From contig JAGMCI010000014.1 of NCBI GenBank assembly GCA_023129325.1, positions 2,123 through 66,122 on the forward strand: a stretch of DNA of 64,000 nucleotides. Direction: 5' to 3'. Numbering within the stretch: position 1 is the first letter of the stretch; every line of letters begins with the position of its first letter. This DNA is from a candidate division WOR-3 bacterium. Its GTDB lineage: Bacteria; Hydrothermota; UBA3073; JACQXS01; JAGMCI01. The position numbers and the translations under genes are program-made. The notes under the pieces are model-generated. The model was not told where the DNA came from. It did not search any database and saw only the letters and a program-made list of their open reading frames with translations. Of this stretch, positions 4,403 through 11,954 are shown piece by piece.

Positions 4403-5542
4403 TTATCCTCTTAGAATTTCTTCTGCTGATTTCACACCTTTTCCAATCTCAACTGGATGTCCCATATCTTTTAAAGTCATTTCAACAGCAGATATGGCAG
4501 TAATGATATCAAATGTTCCCATATATCCTAAATGAGCAATTCTGAATATCTTACCTTTAAGGTGAGCCTGTCCACCAGCGACTTTAACACCATACTTATT
4601 ATCAAGTATCTTTTTAAGTTCCAATCCATCAATTCCATCTGGTACCTTAACTGCAGTGACTGCGTTGGCAGGGTATTTTGAAAGGAGTTCGAGTCCAAGT
4701 GCCTTAATTCCAGCTCTTGTGGCATCTGCAAGTCTGTTATGTCGTTTTAAGACATTATCAATTCCTTCTTCTTTCAACATCTTAAGCGACTGGTCCAGAG
4801 CAATAACCAATGAAATTGCGGGCGTATAAGGCGTTTGCCCTTTTGTTTCAAGAGACTTTTTTGCCTTTTTCCAATCAAAATAATACTTAGGAAGATTTGA
4901 GGTTTCAGCAAATTTCCACGTTTTTTCATTAACTGATGCAAATGCAAGTCCTGGTGGCAACATAAGTCCTTTCTGGGAGCCTGAAACACAAATATCAACA
5001 TTCCAATTATCAACCTCTATATCACAAGCCCCAAGTCCAGAGATAGCATCAACCACAAGTAAGGTATTATCTCTTTTTTTTATAATCTCACCATACTCCT
5101 TTATTGGAGACAGAGTGCCAGTTGATGTTTCACAAAGAGTAGTGAATACTGCTTTAATATCTGGTTCCTTATTAAGACAGTCTTCAATCACCTGTGGTTT
5201 TGCTGTATCGCCCCATTCTACATCTACAGGAATTACCCGAACTCCATAAACTTCACATATTTCAGCCCATCGCTCGCCAAATTTACCACCTCTTATAACT
5301 AATGCTTTATCACCCTGAGATAAAGTATTAATTATTGCCCCTTCCATAGCTCCTGTTCCAGATGAAGCAAAAGTAAGAACAACATTCTTTGTTTTGAAAA
5401 TAAGCTTTAAATTTTCTGATACTCTTCTAAAGATTTCCGCATGTTCAGCTGTCCTGTGATGTATAATTGGCTGTGCTTCAGCCAATCTAACTGCATCAGG
5501 AACTGGAGTGGGACCCGGGGTTAAAAGATATTCTTTTTTCAT
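4403..5542 (-). CDS. Class V aminotransferase (serine-pyruvate / phosphoserine aminotransferase type)
   Basis: LTPGPTPVP N-terminus and SGSQKGL PLP-lysine motif. The start is moved to the ATG at 5542, which is preceded by GGAGGGATT. Confidence 0.85.
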   Translation of the reverse strand: MKKEYLLTPGPTPVPDAVRLAEAQPIIHHRTAEHAEIFRRVSENLKLIFKTKNVVLTFASSGTGAMEGAIINTLSQGDKALVIRGGKFGERWAEICEVYGVRVIPVDVEWGDTAKPQVIEDCLNKEPDIKAVFTTLCETSTGTLSPIKEYGEIIKKRDNTLLVVDAISGLGACDIEVDNWNVDICVSGSQKGLMLPPGLAFASVNEKTWKFAETSNLPKYYFDWKKAKKSLETKGQTPYTPAISLVIALDQSLKMLKEEGIDNVLKRHNRLADATRAGIKALGLELLSKYPANAVTAVKVPDGIDGLELKKILDNKYGVKVAGGQAHLKGKIFRIAHLGYMGTFDIITAISAVEMTLKDMGHPVEIGKGVKSAEEILRG

Positions 5543-5561
5543 AATCCCTCCTTTTATCTCA

Positions 5562-5590
5562 AATATATAAACTATTTGTTCCTTTGTCAA
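5562..5590 (-). promoter_or_regulatory. Sigma-70-like promoter for the serC/serA operon
   Basis: The minus strand reads TTGACA, a 17-nt spacer, then TATATT, ending about 20 nt upstream of the ATG at 5542. Confidence 0.5.
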
Positions 5591-5607: not shown

Positions 5608-5635
5608 TTGACAATTTTTAAAAGTCTAATATAAT
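5608..5635 (+). promoter_or_regulatory. Sigma-70-like promoter for the tRNA cluster
   Basis: TTGACA (5608-5613), a 16-nt spacer, then TATAAT (5630-5635). Confidence 0.55.
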
Positions 5636-5677
5636 TGCTACAGAGTAAGTATGGCTCAAGGATAGAGTTTTTGATGG

Positions 5678-5749
5678 GCCGGCATAGCTCAGTGGTAGAG
5701 CAGCTGTTTTGTAAACAGCAGGTCATTGGTTCGAATCCGATTGCCGGCT
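5678..5749 (+). tRNA. tRNA-Thr (anticodon UGU)
   Basis: Hand-folded cloverleaf. Acceptor GCCGGCA/TGCCGGC, D arm GCTC..GAGC, anticodon stem GCTGT/ACAGC with loop TTTGTAA, T arm ATTGG TTCGAAT CCGAT. Confidence 0.9.
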
Positions 5750-5929
5750 ACTTTTGTCTATCAAGAGGAATTGATTTCCTCTGTTGGCTTTTACCAAGAT
5801 AATCACTAGAGCAAAGTAAAATCTATCTACCAGCTTGAAATTGATAAACGGTAATTGGCTATCAGCAAATAGGCACAGATTATTATGAAATGGTTATGTA
5901 TTGAGCTAATAACCAATTACCAGTTTTTT

Positions 5930-6012
5930 GGGCAGGTACCCAAGTGGACAACGGGGGCAGACTGTAAATCTGTTGGCGTATGCCTTCGAAGGTTCGAATC
6001 CTTCCCTGCCCA
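5930..6012 (+). tRNA. tRNA-Tyr (anticodon GUA), long variable arm
   Basis: Acceptor GGGCAGG/CCTGCCC, anticodon loop CTGTAAA, long variable arm TGGCGTATGCCTTC, T arm GAAGG TTCGAAT CCTTC. Confidence 0.9.
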
Positions 6013-6020
6013 AATTTTAT

Positions 6021-6183
6021 GCGGAGGTAACTCAATTGGTAGAGTATTCCGATTACAAGTGCGGGAGTAGCTCAGTTGGTAGAGCATTGGCCTTCCAAGC
6101 CGAGTGTCGCGGGTTCGAGCCCCGTCTCCCGCTGTTTTGCTTTCCAATCGGAATGGTTGCGGGTTCGAGTCCCGTCCTCCGCT
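6021..6183 (+). other. Split Gly-like tRNA whose halves flank the intact tRNA-Gly
   Basis: The 5' half (6021-6051) is GCGGAGG TA ACTC AATTGGTA GAGT A TTCCG. The 3' half (6149-6183) is CGGAA TGGTT GCGGG TTCGAGT CCCGT CCTCCGC T. Acceptor, D, anticodon and T stems all pair, and 97 nt lie between the two anticodon-stem strands. Confidence 0.5.
6061..6133 (+). tRNA. tRNA-Gly (anticodon UCC)
   Basis: Acceptor GCGGGAG/CTCCCGC with discriminator T, anticodon stem TTGGC/GCCGA, loop CTTCCAA, T arm GCGGG TTCGAGC CCCGT. Confidence 0.9.
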
Positions 6184-8053: not shown

Positions 8054-9249
8054 ATATTTTAATAATAACACCTAAATTTCCTTATCCTTTAGATGATGGA
8101 CACAAAATAAGATTATTTAATCTTATAAAACATACTTCTAAAAATCACCGTATTTCACTTATTTCACTTTGCGATTCTCCTGTAGGGGCGATTCATGAAT
8201 CGCCCCTACAAAAATACTGTGAAGTCATTGAACTTGTTAAAGTAAACAAATATAGTATGAAAAGATTTGTAAAACTTGCCCCGGCTTTATTCTCTAATAC
8301 TCCAATTTCAGCAAAATTCCTTTTCTTTCCCAAAATGGCAGAAAAAATTAAAAACTTGCTTCAAGTAAGGGCGAGGTCACCTCGCTCCTACTCTCTTGTT
8401 CAAATTGAGCATTCATATATGGGGCTTTATCTTGATGTCATTAAAGAGTTTAATGTTCGTAAAATACTTACTGTCCATAATCTTGAATTTTTAAGATTTC
8501 CAAGAATGTTTAAAGCATCAAGACCTGGTGGACGAAAACTTGCCTTTTTCATTGATTCAACAAGAATGTGTTACTGGGAACCAGAATTAGCCAAGAAATT
8601 TGACCACATAATTACGGTATCCGAGAGAGATAAAGAAACATTATCTGCCATAGAACCAGAATTAAATATATCAGTAATTCCAAATGGCGTATCTCTTGAA
8701 TATTTTTCTCCTTCAGTAATTCCGCCGGAACCTAATTCACTACTCTGGGTTGGTTCTTTACTTTATGAAGCAAATAAAGATGCAGTAATTTACTTTATAA
8801 ATTCAATTTTACCATTAATAAACAAAGAAATACCAGATGTAAAATTACACATAGTTGGAAAAATTACTCCTAAATTTGAAAATAAACTAAAGAAATACAA
8901 AAATGTAATAGTAGAAGGTTATGTATCTGATGTAAGACCTTATATTGAGCGATGTGAAGTTTTTATAGTTCCATTAAGAGCAGGTGGTGGCACAAGACTT
9001 AAAATCCTTGAAGCAATGGCTATGGAAAAACCTGTAGTTTCAACCTCTATTGGCTGTGAAGGCATAGATGTCGTCCATGGCAAAAACATTCTTATTGCAG
9101 ATACTACAAAAGATTTTGTCAAAGAGACTGTGCAACTTTTGCAAAACAAAGAAGTAAATGAAAAAATTAAAAAAAGTGCCCGAAAATCTGTTGAACAGAA
9201 ATATAATTGGAAAAAAATAGCCAAGCAATTAGGAACAATTTATTCATAA
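8050..9249 (+). CDS. Glycosyltransferase, GT4-like, carrying two in-frame palindromic insertions
   Basis: PLRAGGGTRLKILEAMAMEKPVVST block. The odd peptides SPVGAIHESPLQ and VRARSPRSYS are encoded by palindromes. Confidence 0.8.
   Translation: MNILIITPKFPYPLDDGHKIRLFNLIKHTSKNHRISLISLCDSPVGAIHESPLQKYCEVIELVKVNKYSMKRFVKLAPALFSNTPISAKFLFFPKMAEKIKNLLQVRARSPRSYSLVQIEHSYMGLYLDVIKEFNVRKILTVHNLEFLRFPRMFKASRPGGRKLAFFIDSTRMCYWEPELAKKFDHIITVSERDKETLSAIEPELNISVIPNGVSLEYFSPSVIPPEPNSLLWVGSLLYEANKDAVIYFINSILPLINKEIPDVKLHIVGKITPKFENKLKKYKNVIVEGYVSDVRPYIERCEVFIVPLRAGGGTRLKILEAMAMEKPVVSTSIGCEGIDVVHGKNILIADTTKDFVKETVQLLQNKEVNEKIKKSARKSVEQKYNWKKIAKQLGTIYS
8181..8210. repeat. Perfect 30-nt palindrome in frame within a CDS
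   Basis: TGTAGGGGCGATTCA/TGAATCGCCCCTACA. It is 10 codons long and encodes PVGAIHESPL. A degenerate relative lies at 8364-8392. Confidence 0.85.
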
Positions 9250-10824: not shown

Positions 10825-11954
10825 AAGTAGCAATTTATTCACCAGTTTATCCACCTTCTAAGGGAGGATTAGAATATGTAAGTTCTTCAATGGCAGAGTC
10901 TCTTACAAAATTATGTGATGTGTCTGTATTTACTACTAATGTAGAATTAGGGACAGGCAAAAAAATTTGTAATGATTTCAAAGGAATAAAAGATGGAGTA
11001 GTTGTAAAAAGATATACTCCAAAAATATTCTCTCTTTGCAAATTAATTCATCCTCAACTGTATTCATGGGACTTAGTAAAAGACCTTTGTGAGCATAAAG
11101 TAGATGTCATTCATCTTTATGGTTTTTTTCAATTTCCAATGCTTCTTTCAATATTAAAATATGTAAAATGCCCTACAATTTTATCACCAGTAGCTATATT
11201 TGAGAATTCAGAGACATTTATGCATTCGCTGCTAAGGAGATTTTTACTTAGAAGCATCTGCAAATATATTTCAAGAAAAGTAGTTAAAGTTATAGCTTCC
11301 ACATCCCAATATAGAGAGTTGCTTATATCTCTGGGATTTGATAGAAAAAAAATAGTAAATTCTCTAATCCATGGAATTAATTATAATAAGTTTTCTCACA
11401 TAGTAAGGAAAGAAGAAGACTTAATATTATGTATAGGAAGATATGCCTGGAATAAGGGCTTCCATATATTGATAGAATCTGCTAAATCTATATTAAAACT
11501 TAATCCTAATCTTAAATTCATTATAGCAGGTAAAGTATTTGATAAAAAATATTATGCCAAACTGAACAAAATGATAGTGGGTGAAGAAAGGATAGAATTA
11601 AAAACCAATATTACTGAAGAAGAAATTTTAAACCTTTACTCAAGAGCAAAAATATTTATCTTCCCCTCAATAGCAGACAGTTTTGGGATTGTTAATTTAG
11701 AAGCGATGGCATCAGGAATTCCTGTTATAGCAACAAAAGTAGGAGCAGCTCCTTCATTCTTAAAAAACAATATAGATGGAATATCGATAAAACCTAATAA
11801 TAAAGAAGCCCTAACGAATGCAATCATTGAATTATTAAAAAATGAAAGAAAAAGAGAGTTCTTTAGCCTCAAAGGGGAAGAGACAGTCAAGAAATATGGA
11901 TGGGACAAAATAGCACGAGAGACATTAAAAGTCTACGCGGAAGTAAAGAGATGA
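10821..11954 (+). CDS. Glycosyltransferase, GT4
   Basis: FPSIADSFGIVNLEAMASGIPVIATKVGA block. Confidence 0.85.
   Translation: MKVAIYSPVYPPSKGGLEYVSSSMAESLTKLCDVSVFTTNVELGTGKKICNDFKGIKDGVVVKRYTPKIFSLCKLIHPQLYSWDLVKDLCEHKVDVIHLYGFFQFPMLLSILKYVKCPTILSPVAIFENSETFMHSLLRRFLLRSICKYISRKVVKVIASTSQYRELLISLGFDRKKIVNSLIHGINYNKFSHIVRKEEDLILCIGRYAWNKGFHILIESAKSILKLNPNLKFIIAGKVFDKKYYAKLNKMIVGEERIELKTNITEEEILNLYSRAKIFIFPSIADSFGIVNLEAMASGIPVIATKVGAAPSFLKNNIDGISIKPNNKEALTNAIIELLKNERKREFFSLKGEETVKKYGWDKIARETLKVYAEVKR

Follow-up and report, generated by a model that had tools for sequence, protein, structure and literature searches.

A tRNA-Gly(UCC) gene within the anticodon arm of another

The DNA analysed here is a 64,000-nt stretch of a contig from a candidate division WOR-3 bacterium (the window). 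It carries a Thr-Tyr-Gly cluster of tRNA genes, in which a complete tRNA-Gly(UCC) gene sits within the anticodon arm of a second tRNA-Gly(UCC) gene, forming a 163-nt unit (6021–6183). The halves of the outer gene read GCGGAGG TA ACTC AATTGGTA GAGT A TTCCG from 6021 and CGGAA TGGTT GCGGG TTCGAGT CCCGT CCTCCGC T up to 6183. Between them lies an 88-bp insert (6053–6140) made up of TTACAAGT, the inner gene and GTTTTGC. The stems of the outer gene are fully paired (acceptor 7/7, D 4/4, anticodon 5/5 and T 5/5, including one G-U), and the inverted repeat that spans the insert measures 9 bp (ATTCCGATT/AATCGGAAT). We estimate that a 7/7 Watson-Crick acceptor and a 5-bp anticodon stem in register would arise with p ~4^-12, which excludes a chance origin. 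An earlier note, made from the letters of this DNA, had placed the outer halves and the inner gene at these same positions, and sequence, stem pairing, ARAGORN and Rfam bear it out. Its 97-nt interruption becomes 88 nt under the 6-bp-stem reading given below, and its 8-bp extension of the interrupted stem falls short of the 9 bp measured.

ARAGORN called the inner gene (6061–6133) as tRNA-Gly(tcc), and the Rfam tRNA model matched it over its full length with 69 bits (threshold 29 bits). Glycine identity elements are G1-C72, C2-G71, G3-C70, U73, C35 and C36. The inner gene carries all of these, and G1-C72, C2-G71, G3-C70 and U73 can also be read in the outer gene, as had been pointed out before. 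The covariance model accepts each outer half as a truncated match, with 13.6 bits for the 5' half (model positions 1–31) and 19.7 bits for the 3' half (model positions 31–71), scores which give no credit for pairs between the halves; the alignment of the 3' half places UUUCCAA as the anticodon loop. Run on the native sequence with its intron options, ARAGORN reported the inner gene only; the program suppresses overlapping calls. When 6053–6140 was deleted it called a 75-nt tRNA-Gly(tcc) with the loop TTTCCAA and a 6-bp anticodon stem, which is unusual. Any artificial splice with 7 nt remaining in the loop was called a tRNA.

TTTCCAA (6141–6147) directly precedes TCGGAA, and TTCCGA (6047–6052) is the complement of TCGGAA. 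Judged from the sequence, the best reading gives the outer gene an anticodon stem of 6 bp (TTCCGA/TCGGAA), with the loop TTTCCAA entirely 3' of the insert. The insertion point would then fall immediately after the 5' strand of the outer anticodon stem, a 31/32-type position. With this reading a duplication of the loop becomes unnecessary, and ATTACAA on the 5' side is not needed. The earlier note had seen loop-like sequence at both junctions; in our reading TTTCCAA on the 3' side is the outer loop, and the resemblance of ATTACAA to it (5/7) is, by our estimate, not significant. A target-site or attachment-site (att) core duplication, either of the anticodon loop (that same pair of heptamers) or of positions 27–39 (7/13), was likewise rejected as not significant in AT-rich DNA.

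The outer gene, described before as merely ‘Gly-like’, can be identified as a tRNA-Gly(UCC), sharing its anticodon with the inner gene, based on the ARAGORN call after removal of 6053–6140, the loop placed by Rfam and the loop of intact homologues. Such homologues are found in phage tRNA arrays. Those in L065 and L066 read GCGGAGG TA ACTC AATGGTA GAGT C CCAGT TTTCCAA ACTGA TTGTT GCGGG TTCGAGT CCCGT CCTCCGC T, and the one in L131 has the same body as the outer gene, with loop TTTCCAA and variable region TGGTT. ARAGORN called all of them tRNA-Gly(UCC), and little or nothing distinguishes their acceptor, D arm (A10-U25) and T arm from those of the outer gene. The arrays in question (L065:35-109, L066:1450-1524 and L131, minus strand, near 11893-11908) are those of large phages, on contigs of up to 278 kb.

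When the outer and inner genes are aligned, 18 positions differ. Wherever a stem is affected, the pairing partner has changed to match; this applies to 5-68 and 6-67 of the acceptor, to 10-25 of the D stem and to the anticodon stem. Co-variation extends to the tertiary 15-48 pair (A15-T48 in the outer gene, G15-C48 in the inner one). This argues that both genes were selected as independent tRNAs rather than being sloppy local copies, and that the outer one was a working gene. No decay is visible in the outer halves. The outer gene begins 7 nt after tRNA-Tyr, and Thr-Tyr-Gly(-Thr) clusters such as that of L061 hold tRNA-Gly(UCC) at this third position (the glyT slot). We infer that the outer gene is the resident and the inner gene the newcomer.

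The nest is not an artefact of a single assembly, a concern raised in the earlier note, because the independently assembled Logan contig SRR13892596_118634 (L001) shows 0 mismatches to the window over 4787 nt. That contig comes from the same strain and is hence silent on conservation. As a whole the unit folds at -65.5 kcal/mol (minimum free energy, MFE), with the inner cloverleaf enclosed. The earlier note's dismissal of both a group I intron and a bulge-helix-bulge motif holds up: the insert has only 88 nt and no Rfam intron or ribozyme family was found in the unit, with no match to Intron_gpI even at E <= 10, and the fold at the insert junctions contains no bulge-helix-bulge. Instead it consists of an 8-10-bp helix, a 2x3 internal loop, a 4-bp helix and a 6-nt bulge on the same (3') strand, which is the wrong geometry for that motif.

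Turning to viruses, a blastn search with the 163-nt unit against 50,697 GenBank phage records gave no match covering at least 80% of it. In viral contigs the inner anticodon arm had 0 matches and a two-motif nest pattern had 5, with 0 true nests among them; the outer 5' 16-mer matched mostly in coding sequence, plus one further intact Gly(UCC).

Recurrence of nested tRNA genes and the ends of their inserts

To look for similar arrangements in metagenomes, we used a pattern on one strand consisting of a D-loop motif 14–44 nt before a tRNA D arm, the D arm itself, and a T-arm motif 60–90 nt after it, a spacing that normal tandem tRNA genes cannot attain. The scan returned 23 loci. After removal of duplicates and a few tandem-fragment cases, ~12 were independent true nests with complementary outer acceptor stems (Table 1). 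The nested tRNAs are of the types Thr, Val, Met and Ala. A typical insert has ~110–125 bp, lies in the anticodon loop and carries a complete tRNA with the same anticodon on the same strand. The nest in the window shares this outcome, with a complete same-anticodon inner tRNA on the same strand in the loop of the outer one. Wherever the outer loop is complete, its anticodon equals that of the inner gene: this holds for L043 and L046 (both TTCG/TAA, the slash marking the insert), L047, L048 (TTTACA/T), L050 (/ATGGTAA) and L059 (ATG/GTAA). The partial outer loops of L045, L053, L055 and L060 are compatible with the inner anticodon.

The inner genes of these nests score 68–75 bits with the Rfam tRNA model, and the outer copies range from perfect (L048, L050, L059) through slightly damaged (L043, L045, L046) and broken (L047, L053, L055) to heavily eroded (L049, L054, L060). 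In details specific to the lineage (the D loop of L043, for instance), inner tRNAs are similar to the outer genes that enclose them. Insertion points vary between 31/32, 34/35, 35/36, 37/38 and the D loop, and in MFE predictions several nests fold into a double cloverleaf, in which the arms of the insert stack onto the anticodon stem of the outer tRNA. The contexts are ordinary chromosomal ones (neighbours include IleRS, FtsH, IF-2, triose-phosphate isomerase, signal peptidase and Clp ATPase), and no recombinase adjoins the six nested loci examined. Two apparently orthologous Thr(GGU) nests, each beside a TPR-protein gene, lie at L050:201-351 and L059:10773-10927. Their insertion points (31/32 vs 34/35) and arm orientation differ; the L050 inner tRNA and the L059 outer tRNA have the acceptor, D arm and anticodon arm in common, but not the T stem.

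Many of the metagenome inserts have inverted-repeat ends of 10–13 bp that abut the split loop. In family (a) the ends, CCCGCCTGCC ... GGCGGGCAGG, form an imperfect repeat of 10 bp whose mismatch and wobble do not change from copy to copy (L043, L046, L048 and L050, and in flipped orientation L059); one arm substitution in L046 is uncompensated. When a family (a) cassette is removed exactly, the 7-nt loop that remains is the same as the inner loop, and no duplication of the target is seen. Tyrosine- or serine-recombinase products were considered for these junctions and rejected, as there is no duplicated overlap and no shared central dinucleotide. Family (b) has conserved termini, TTCACCCC ... 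GGGGCAAG, and inner arms which differ between copies yet are complementary (for example CCCCGTTAGA/TCTAACGGGG, CCCCGTCAAAT/ATTTGACGGGG and CCCCCACACCTTT/AAAGGTGTGGGGG). It occurs in either orientation relative to the tRNAs, and arms of this family, CCCCGTTAGAAG ... CTTCTAACGGGG, also flank an 85-nt non-tRNA segment, intergenic and in the same genome (L063:3367-3485, equal to L064:4605-4723). With conserved termini and co-varying arms, found in either orientation and also around a non-tRNA segment, these cassette ends behave like those of a mobile element. The co-varying arms fit an RNA or single-stranded DNA helix and paired transposase sites alike and do not discriminate between these, and no Rfam ribozyme, intron or other family was found at the arms. 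The insert in the window belongs to neither family. By fold and repeat search it has no inverted-repeat ends, its flanks TTACAAGT and GTTTTGC offering weak AAGT/GCTT pairing only.

Some further occurrences of these ends were recorded. TATG stands on both sides of the segment at L063:3367-3485 and may be a target duplication. In viral contigs the family (a) arm pattern gave 50 matches, nearly all of them chance matches in GC-rich coding DNA, and the family (b) arm pattern gave 1 raw match. The viral contigs L073 and L101 carry repeated hairpins, CCCGCCTGCC-loop-GGCGGGCAGGG, in conserved flanks with no tRNA, the arms of which match family (a) ends, and a third viral contig holds a cassette-like segment with family (a) arms and non-tRNA content (L071:1091-1189). 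Upstream of the tRNA-Thr(UGU) gene of L061 (3560-3700, minus strand) there is a 5' tRNA fragment that repeats the gene's first 13 nt exactly, with a GC-rich hairpin bearing the GGCGGGCAGG motif in its D loop, followed by a truncated D/anticodon arm. A search for family (a) orthologues based on triose-phosphate isomerase returned one contig, which ends inside the tRNA.

At one locus, successive states of nesting could be compared. The FtsH protein of L063 is 100% identical to a protein that NCBI names Candidatus Jorgensenbacteria, a bacterium of the candidate phyla radiation (CPR), and through FtsH homologues at 86–89% identity we reached syntenic loci, arranged as FtsH, Ile, Val(GAC), RluA-like, L19, Leu(GAG), Val(UAC), Phe, Gly. 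The Val(UAC) gene occurs here in plain, D-loop-nested and anticodon-loop-nested states (Table 1), and the inner tRNA type of L142 is the outer tRNA of L063. Nesting is thus derived, sporadic and repeated in this lineage, and an invader can become the next resident. The earlier note had counted a normal arrangement in related genomes, together with a nest confined to one assembly, as a refutation; in this analogous lineage sister genomes do carry the plain gene, and this speaks for a derived insertion and not for an artefact. A 9-nt stretch after the L063 nest, GGTTATAGG, is suggestive only, and could be the last trace of the oldest layer.

Other features of this locus deserve mention. Two free-standing open reading frames (ORFs) of LAGLIDADG type lie by tRNA genes at L142:10183-11860, ~1.5 kb from the nested Val array, and they could encode a nuclease that targets tRNA genes, which makes them a possible lead to the enzyme behind the cassettes. 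At L133:9409-9700 (equal to L134) the Val-Phe-Gly tRNAs are missing from the same syntenic locus; after tRNA-Leu(GAG) comes GGGCGGTT, the start of a Val-type tRNA, followed by small ORFs including one for a DnaD_N/HTH_36 protein, which suggests that a larger element has integrated at a Val-type tRNA.

Table 1. Features of the tRNA cluster in the window, and nested tRNA genes, family (b) cassettes and Val(UAC) states in other contigs.
Feature	Location	Strand	Basis or remark
Promoter-like TTGACA-16-TATAAT	window 5608..5635	+	12/12 match to sigma-70 consensus; predicted from consensus only
tRNA-Thr(UGU), first of the Thr-Tyr-Gly cluster	window 5677..5751	+	ARAGORN; Rfam tRNA 73.5 bits
Terminator-like hairpin with T run, right after tRNA-Thr	window 5764-5782		
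tRNA-Tyr(GUA)	window 5929..6013	+	ARAGORN; Rfam tRNA 56.7 bits
Outer (resident) tRNA-Gly(UCC), 5' part: acceptor GCGGAGG, D arm ACTC/GAGT, anticodon-stem 5' strand TTCCG(A)	window 6021..6052	+	Sequence, stem pairing, Rfam truncated match
Insert left flank TTACAAGT	window 6053..6060	+	Sequence; with A6052, loop-like ATTACAA
Inner complete tRNA-Gly(UCC), presumed working gene; no encoded CCA, like its neighbours	window 6061..6133	+	ARAGORN, Rfam tRNA
Insert right flank GTTTTGC	window 6134..6140	+	Sequence
Outer tRNA-Gly(UCC), 3' part: loop TTTCCAA, stem TCGGAA, variable TGGTT, T arm GCGGG/CCCGT, acceptor CCTCCGC, discriminator T	window 6141..6183	+	Rfam, ARAGORN
Nested Thr(CGU)	L043 (= L051), L046, L047		
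Nested Thr(GGU)	L050, L059		
Nested Val(UAC)	L048, L053 (= L063 = L064), L055		
Nested Met(CAU)	L045		
Less clear nests	L052, L054, L057		
Family (b) cassettes	L053:6714-6867, L045:2525-2677, L047:9356-9491, L142:8540-8725		L142: D loop, not anticodon loop
Plain un-nested tRNA-Val(UAC)	L132:9284-9357, L135:9755-9828, L144:8352-8425		
Plain-type Val gene split in the D loop by a family (b)-type cassette	L142 (= L143), 8579-8652		Cassette carries variant tRNA (GGACGAT ... CTTCA ... GCAGG)
GGACGAT variant as outer interrupted gene	L063:7529-7682		Third variant (GGGCGGT) inside; anticodon-loop nest
Plain-type 5' half, cassette with GGACGAT type, inner-type 3' half	L055:4293-4444		Acceptor mismatch results; anticodon-loop nest

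Possible origins of the nest

We think it probable that an insertion at the DNA level disabled a resident glyT-type gene and brought its replacement along, leaving an inner gene that works and an outer gene that is a fresh relic. The 88-bp insert, a complete tRNA-Gly(UCC) with flanks of 8 and 7 bp, would have split the resident third gene of the Thr-Tyr-Gly cluster, and the outer halves would be what is left of that disabled gene. The inner gene, presumably the only functional one of the two, would be transcribed with the cluster, cut at its 5' end by RNase P and at its 3' end by RNase Z, and then receive its CCA. Since no decay is yet visible in the outer halves, the insertion would be recent. 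We propose that this is one instance of a recurrent process in which small tRNA-carrying cassettes land in a loop of a resident tRNA gene with the same anticodon, so that the cell would lose nothing while the broken outer copy then erodes. The same-anticodon rule may come from selection, because an insert in a single-copy tRNA gene would survive only if its cargo replaces that gene.

In support of such an insertion, removal of 6053–6140 restores the TTTCCAA loop of the intact homologues, and the location of the outer gene, 7 nt after tRNA-Tyr in the Gly slot, supports it as the resident. Outer halves that run from perfect to badly eroded across loci are as might be expected of disabled copies of different ages, and the plain and nested states at the Jorgensenbacteria locus are as repeated insertion and replacement would give. 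Of the three readings put forward in the earlier note, the insertion of a paralogue is accordingly the best supported, while the split tRNA and the tRNA-in-tRNA intron have no positive support at the locus in the window.

Several points weigh against this explanation. The insert in the window has neither inverted-repeat ends, nor a defensible target duplication, nor a recombinase nearby, and its link to the cassette families is an analogy of outcome with no shared sequence, although the same mechanism may have produced both. The absence of any decay in the outer halves also fits continued function, and a further tRNA-Gly(UCC) may exist elsewhere in the genome, of which the 64-kb window was covered. 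Exact removal of a family (a) cassette, which restores a perfect loop, is equally intron-like, and the match between cargo and target has no explaining mechanism besides selection against lethal mismatches. Finally, we found neither an un-nested nor a diverged nested orthologue of this nest, the aminotransferase relatives described below (71–76% identity) having no adjacent tRNA cluster.

The lack of inverted-repeat ends is one of the points in favour of a local rearrangement among tRNA-Gly paralogues in which no mobile cassette took part, through a template switch during replication or through tandem copies and deletions, which would give A(1-39)/B(1-73)/A(27-73) with a dead outer gene. Others are the exact tandem register (6020–6059 and 6060–6099 are 75% identical at a spacing of 40, and 6087–6133 matches 6136–6183 at a spacing of 49–50) and the anticodon-loop-like heptamers at both junctions. 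We regard this origin as unlikely, since the supposedly duplicated anticodon-arm copies are ~54% identical, which is not significant in AT-rich DNA (p ~0.05 by our estimate), and the stems are all perfect. Moreover, the many compensatory pairs that differ between outer and inner genes argue against recent local copies, the recurrence of nesting among different tRNA types and in lineages unrelated to each other speaks for a process and against an accident, and the tandem-plus-deletion route requires two precise deletions. An assembly or chimera artefact is barely credible. Long identical words among tRNA genes can confuse assemblers, but mis-joining would not yield outer halves that are complementary to each other and unlike the inner gene, the Logan assembly agrees, and analogous nests recur across samples (L043 = L051, L053 = L063 = L064).

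The flawless stems and 15-48 pair of the outer gene would also suit the main rival, an intervening sequence at the RNA level. Here the 163-nt unit would be transcribed, the inner tRNA excised (RNase P and RNase Z might do this, or an endonuclease at the base of the insert helix), and the outer halves, held together by acceptor and anticodon stems, trimmed and re-ligated so that both tRNAs mature. The double-cloverleaf folds of several nests, the inner-identical 7-nt loop left by removal of family (a) cassettes with no target duplication, and the arm pairing kept through sequence change are all compatible with it. The 80-115-nt inserts at 37/38 of Lak megaphage tRNA genes are treated as introns, with outer genes that score well and inner elements that look degenerate (PMC6784885). 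Yet cuts by RNase P and RNase Z in the window would leave tails of 8 and 7 nt, and hence a 22-nt loop on simple ligation, and there is no bulge-helix-bulge and no match to a ribozyme or intron family. We also know of no protein-dependent tRNA splicing in bacteria. Outer copies that are broken elsewhere (L047, L053, L055, L049, L054, L060) would be unexpected for a maintained pair of exons, insert positions vary, the L046 arm substitution is uncompensated, and an intron has no need to carry a tRNA with the same anticodon. Splicing of this kind thus seems quite unlikely. For a genuine bacterial tRNA-in-tRNA sequence, one transcript giving two Gly tRNAs through an endonuclease/ligase pathway with, for example, an RtcB-type ligase, the case is slim.

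One could also imagine that the outer halves are kept for a role other than decoding, either as a processing stem or scaffold for the inner tRNA (compare rRNA processing stems) or as an end-of-operon structure. We consider this very unlikely: un-nested orthologues in the Jorgensenbacteria lineage manage with no scaffold, and outer halves decay elsewhere. The outer acceptor stem does extend into the flanks (AAATTTTATGCGGAGG/CCTCCGCTTTAAAATT, 13/16 paired), but pairing of AT-rich flanks is weak evidence; the stable fold of the unit around the inner cloverleaf and the lack of a separate terminator after the cluster also fit such a role.

Known systems and the surroundings of the nest

Our literature searches on nested, embedded or interrupted bacterial tRNA genes and on the arm sequences yielded one precedent, from Lak megaphages, and none from cellular bacteria. 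Within these searches, the earlier note's remark that it knew of no described bacterial example holds for cellular bacteria, while the phage report and the ~12 metagenome nests go beyond it. In Lak megaphages, ‘enigmatic introns’ of 80-115 nt were found at 37/38 of tRNAs Tyr, Phe, Gly(UCC) and Thr(UGU), and the Thr insert ‘may itself encode a tRNA’ (Devoto et al., 2019, Nat Microbiol, PMC6784885). These inserts are present or absent between closely related phage genomes, match nothing in Rfam and have no known mechanism; those in Table S6 start with a hairpin and an A-rich spacer and mostly hold a degenerate acceptor/T-arm minihelix only (PMC6784885). They resemble the window in that tRNA genes are interrupted in the anticodon loop, in one case possibly by a tRNA. 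However, they lie in phage genes at the canonical 37/38, whereas the nest here lies in a cellular chromosome, at a 31/32-type position and with almost no flanks. Comparing by eye with Table S6, we found in the window a full, high-scoring tRNA with the same anticodon, no hairpin or spacer, and no sequence similarity. The resemblance is of kind, not of family.

Phages, integrative and conjugative elements (ICEs) and genomic islands insert themselves into tRNA genes, in many cases at the anticodon arm, and restore the gene with a copy of its 3' part that they carry; integration of such elements into tRNA genes was reportedly treated by Williams in Nucleic Acids Research (NAR) in 2002. As in the window, the target is a tRNA gene, often its anticodon arm, and the damage is compensated by tRNA sequence of the element. 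These elements, however, are kilobases long, encode an integrase and give rise to direct repeats, one of them a full but chimeric tRNA and the other a 3' fragment far away. In the window a whole tRNA lies between complementary target halves, the insert has 88 bp, and there is no integrase nearby and no further copy of the tRNA 3' end in 64 kb.

To our knowledge, group I introns are the only accepted kind of bacterial tRNA intron. They occur in the anticodon loops of tRNA-Leu UAA, fMet, Ile and Arg, the same general location as our insert, but have at least 200 nt and a conserved catalytic core (P3-P9), compared with 88 nt here. Protein-spliced tRNA introns of archaea and eukaryotes, and split and permuted tRNA genes, have been reviewed (PMC4033280, PMC4090602). 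As in the window, the introns make a tRNA gene discontinuous near the anticodon loop, with halves held by acceptor and anticodon-stem pairing. They require a bulge-helix-bulge and EndA, an archaeal/eukaryal enzyme, whereas the window is bacterial, has no such motif, and its intervening sequence is an isoacceptor tRNA.

Miniature inverted-repeat transposable elements (MITEs) and repetitive extragenic palindromic doublets forming hairpins (REPINs) are small non-autonomous elements with inverted repeats, and intervening sequences in rRNA are removed by RNase III with no re-ligation. The metagenome cassettes resemble the former in their 10-13-bp inverted-repeat ends, either orientation, variable presence in sister genomes and the possibility of other cargo, and the latter in sitting in loops of a structural RNA gene. 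They differ from MITEs and REPINs in that their tRNA cargo matches the target, family (a) makes no target-site duplication and no associated transposase was identified. The insert in the window, lacking inverted-repeat ends, differs from the cassettes in turn.

The locus is a clean cellular example of a recurrent and barely described way to interrupt and replace tRNA genes. Few genomic sites are as conserved as tRNA genes or targeted as often, and the list of accepted ways to interrupt them is short. If the insertion took place at the DNA level, we may be looking at an element, selfish or neutral, that avoids being selected against because it brings along a spare of the very gene that it destroys. 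tRNA genes would then also turn over by a route invisible to annotation pipelines, which call the inner gene only. At one CPR locus, successive rounds in which an invader becomes the resident can be traced. If instead the outer tRNA is restored at the RNA level, this would imply an unknown bacterial tRNA splicing pathway, the first protein-dependent one in Bacteria, and the inverted-repeat cassettes of CPR and other uncultured bacteria would be a mobile form of intervening sequence.

As for the surroundings, a perfect match to the sigma-70 promoter consensus precedes tRNA-Thr at the head of the cluster. Given the terminator-like hairpin after tRNA-Thr (Table 1), tRNA-Tyr and the Gly nest may be transcribed separately from tRNA-Thr; no promoter match was found before tRNA-Tyr, and no separate terminator after the cluster. 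No integrase or recombinase lies near the nest, and the 3' end of the tRNA has only its two known copies, with no third, within 64 kb. The window thus shows no att-site duplication of the kind an integrase would leave. An island larger than the window may nevertheless exist, and the ~58-kb gene run to the right of the nest may belong to one that integrated at the cluster. An island of the Prochlorococcus type at the tRNA was considered and dropped after the search with the neighbouring aminotransferase.

That gene, encoding a class-V aminotransferase (4403-5590), lies left of the cluster on the minus strand together with one for a 2-hydroxyacid dehydrogenase. Among the 35 genome loci found with it, the best at 71–73% identity (metagenome-assembled genomes labelled WOR-3 or ‘bacterium’), none had an adjacent tRNA, and the closest homologues in a large protein collection (76%) likewise came with no tRNA cluster. 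The identical 379-aa product of L001 was not returned; a best match of 76% indicates that very few close relatives of this organism are present in public collections. To the right of the nest, an uninterrupted run of plus-strand genes extends over ~58 kb (6381-64000), starting 197 nt after the nested tRNA and encoding a methyltransferase, many GT4 glycosyltransferases, polysaccharide genes and a PMT_2-like protein.

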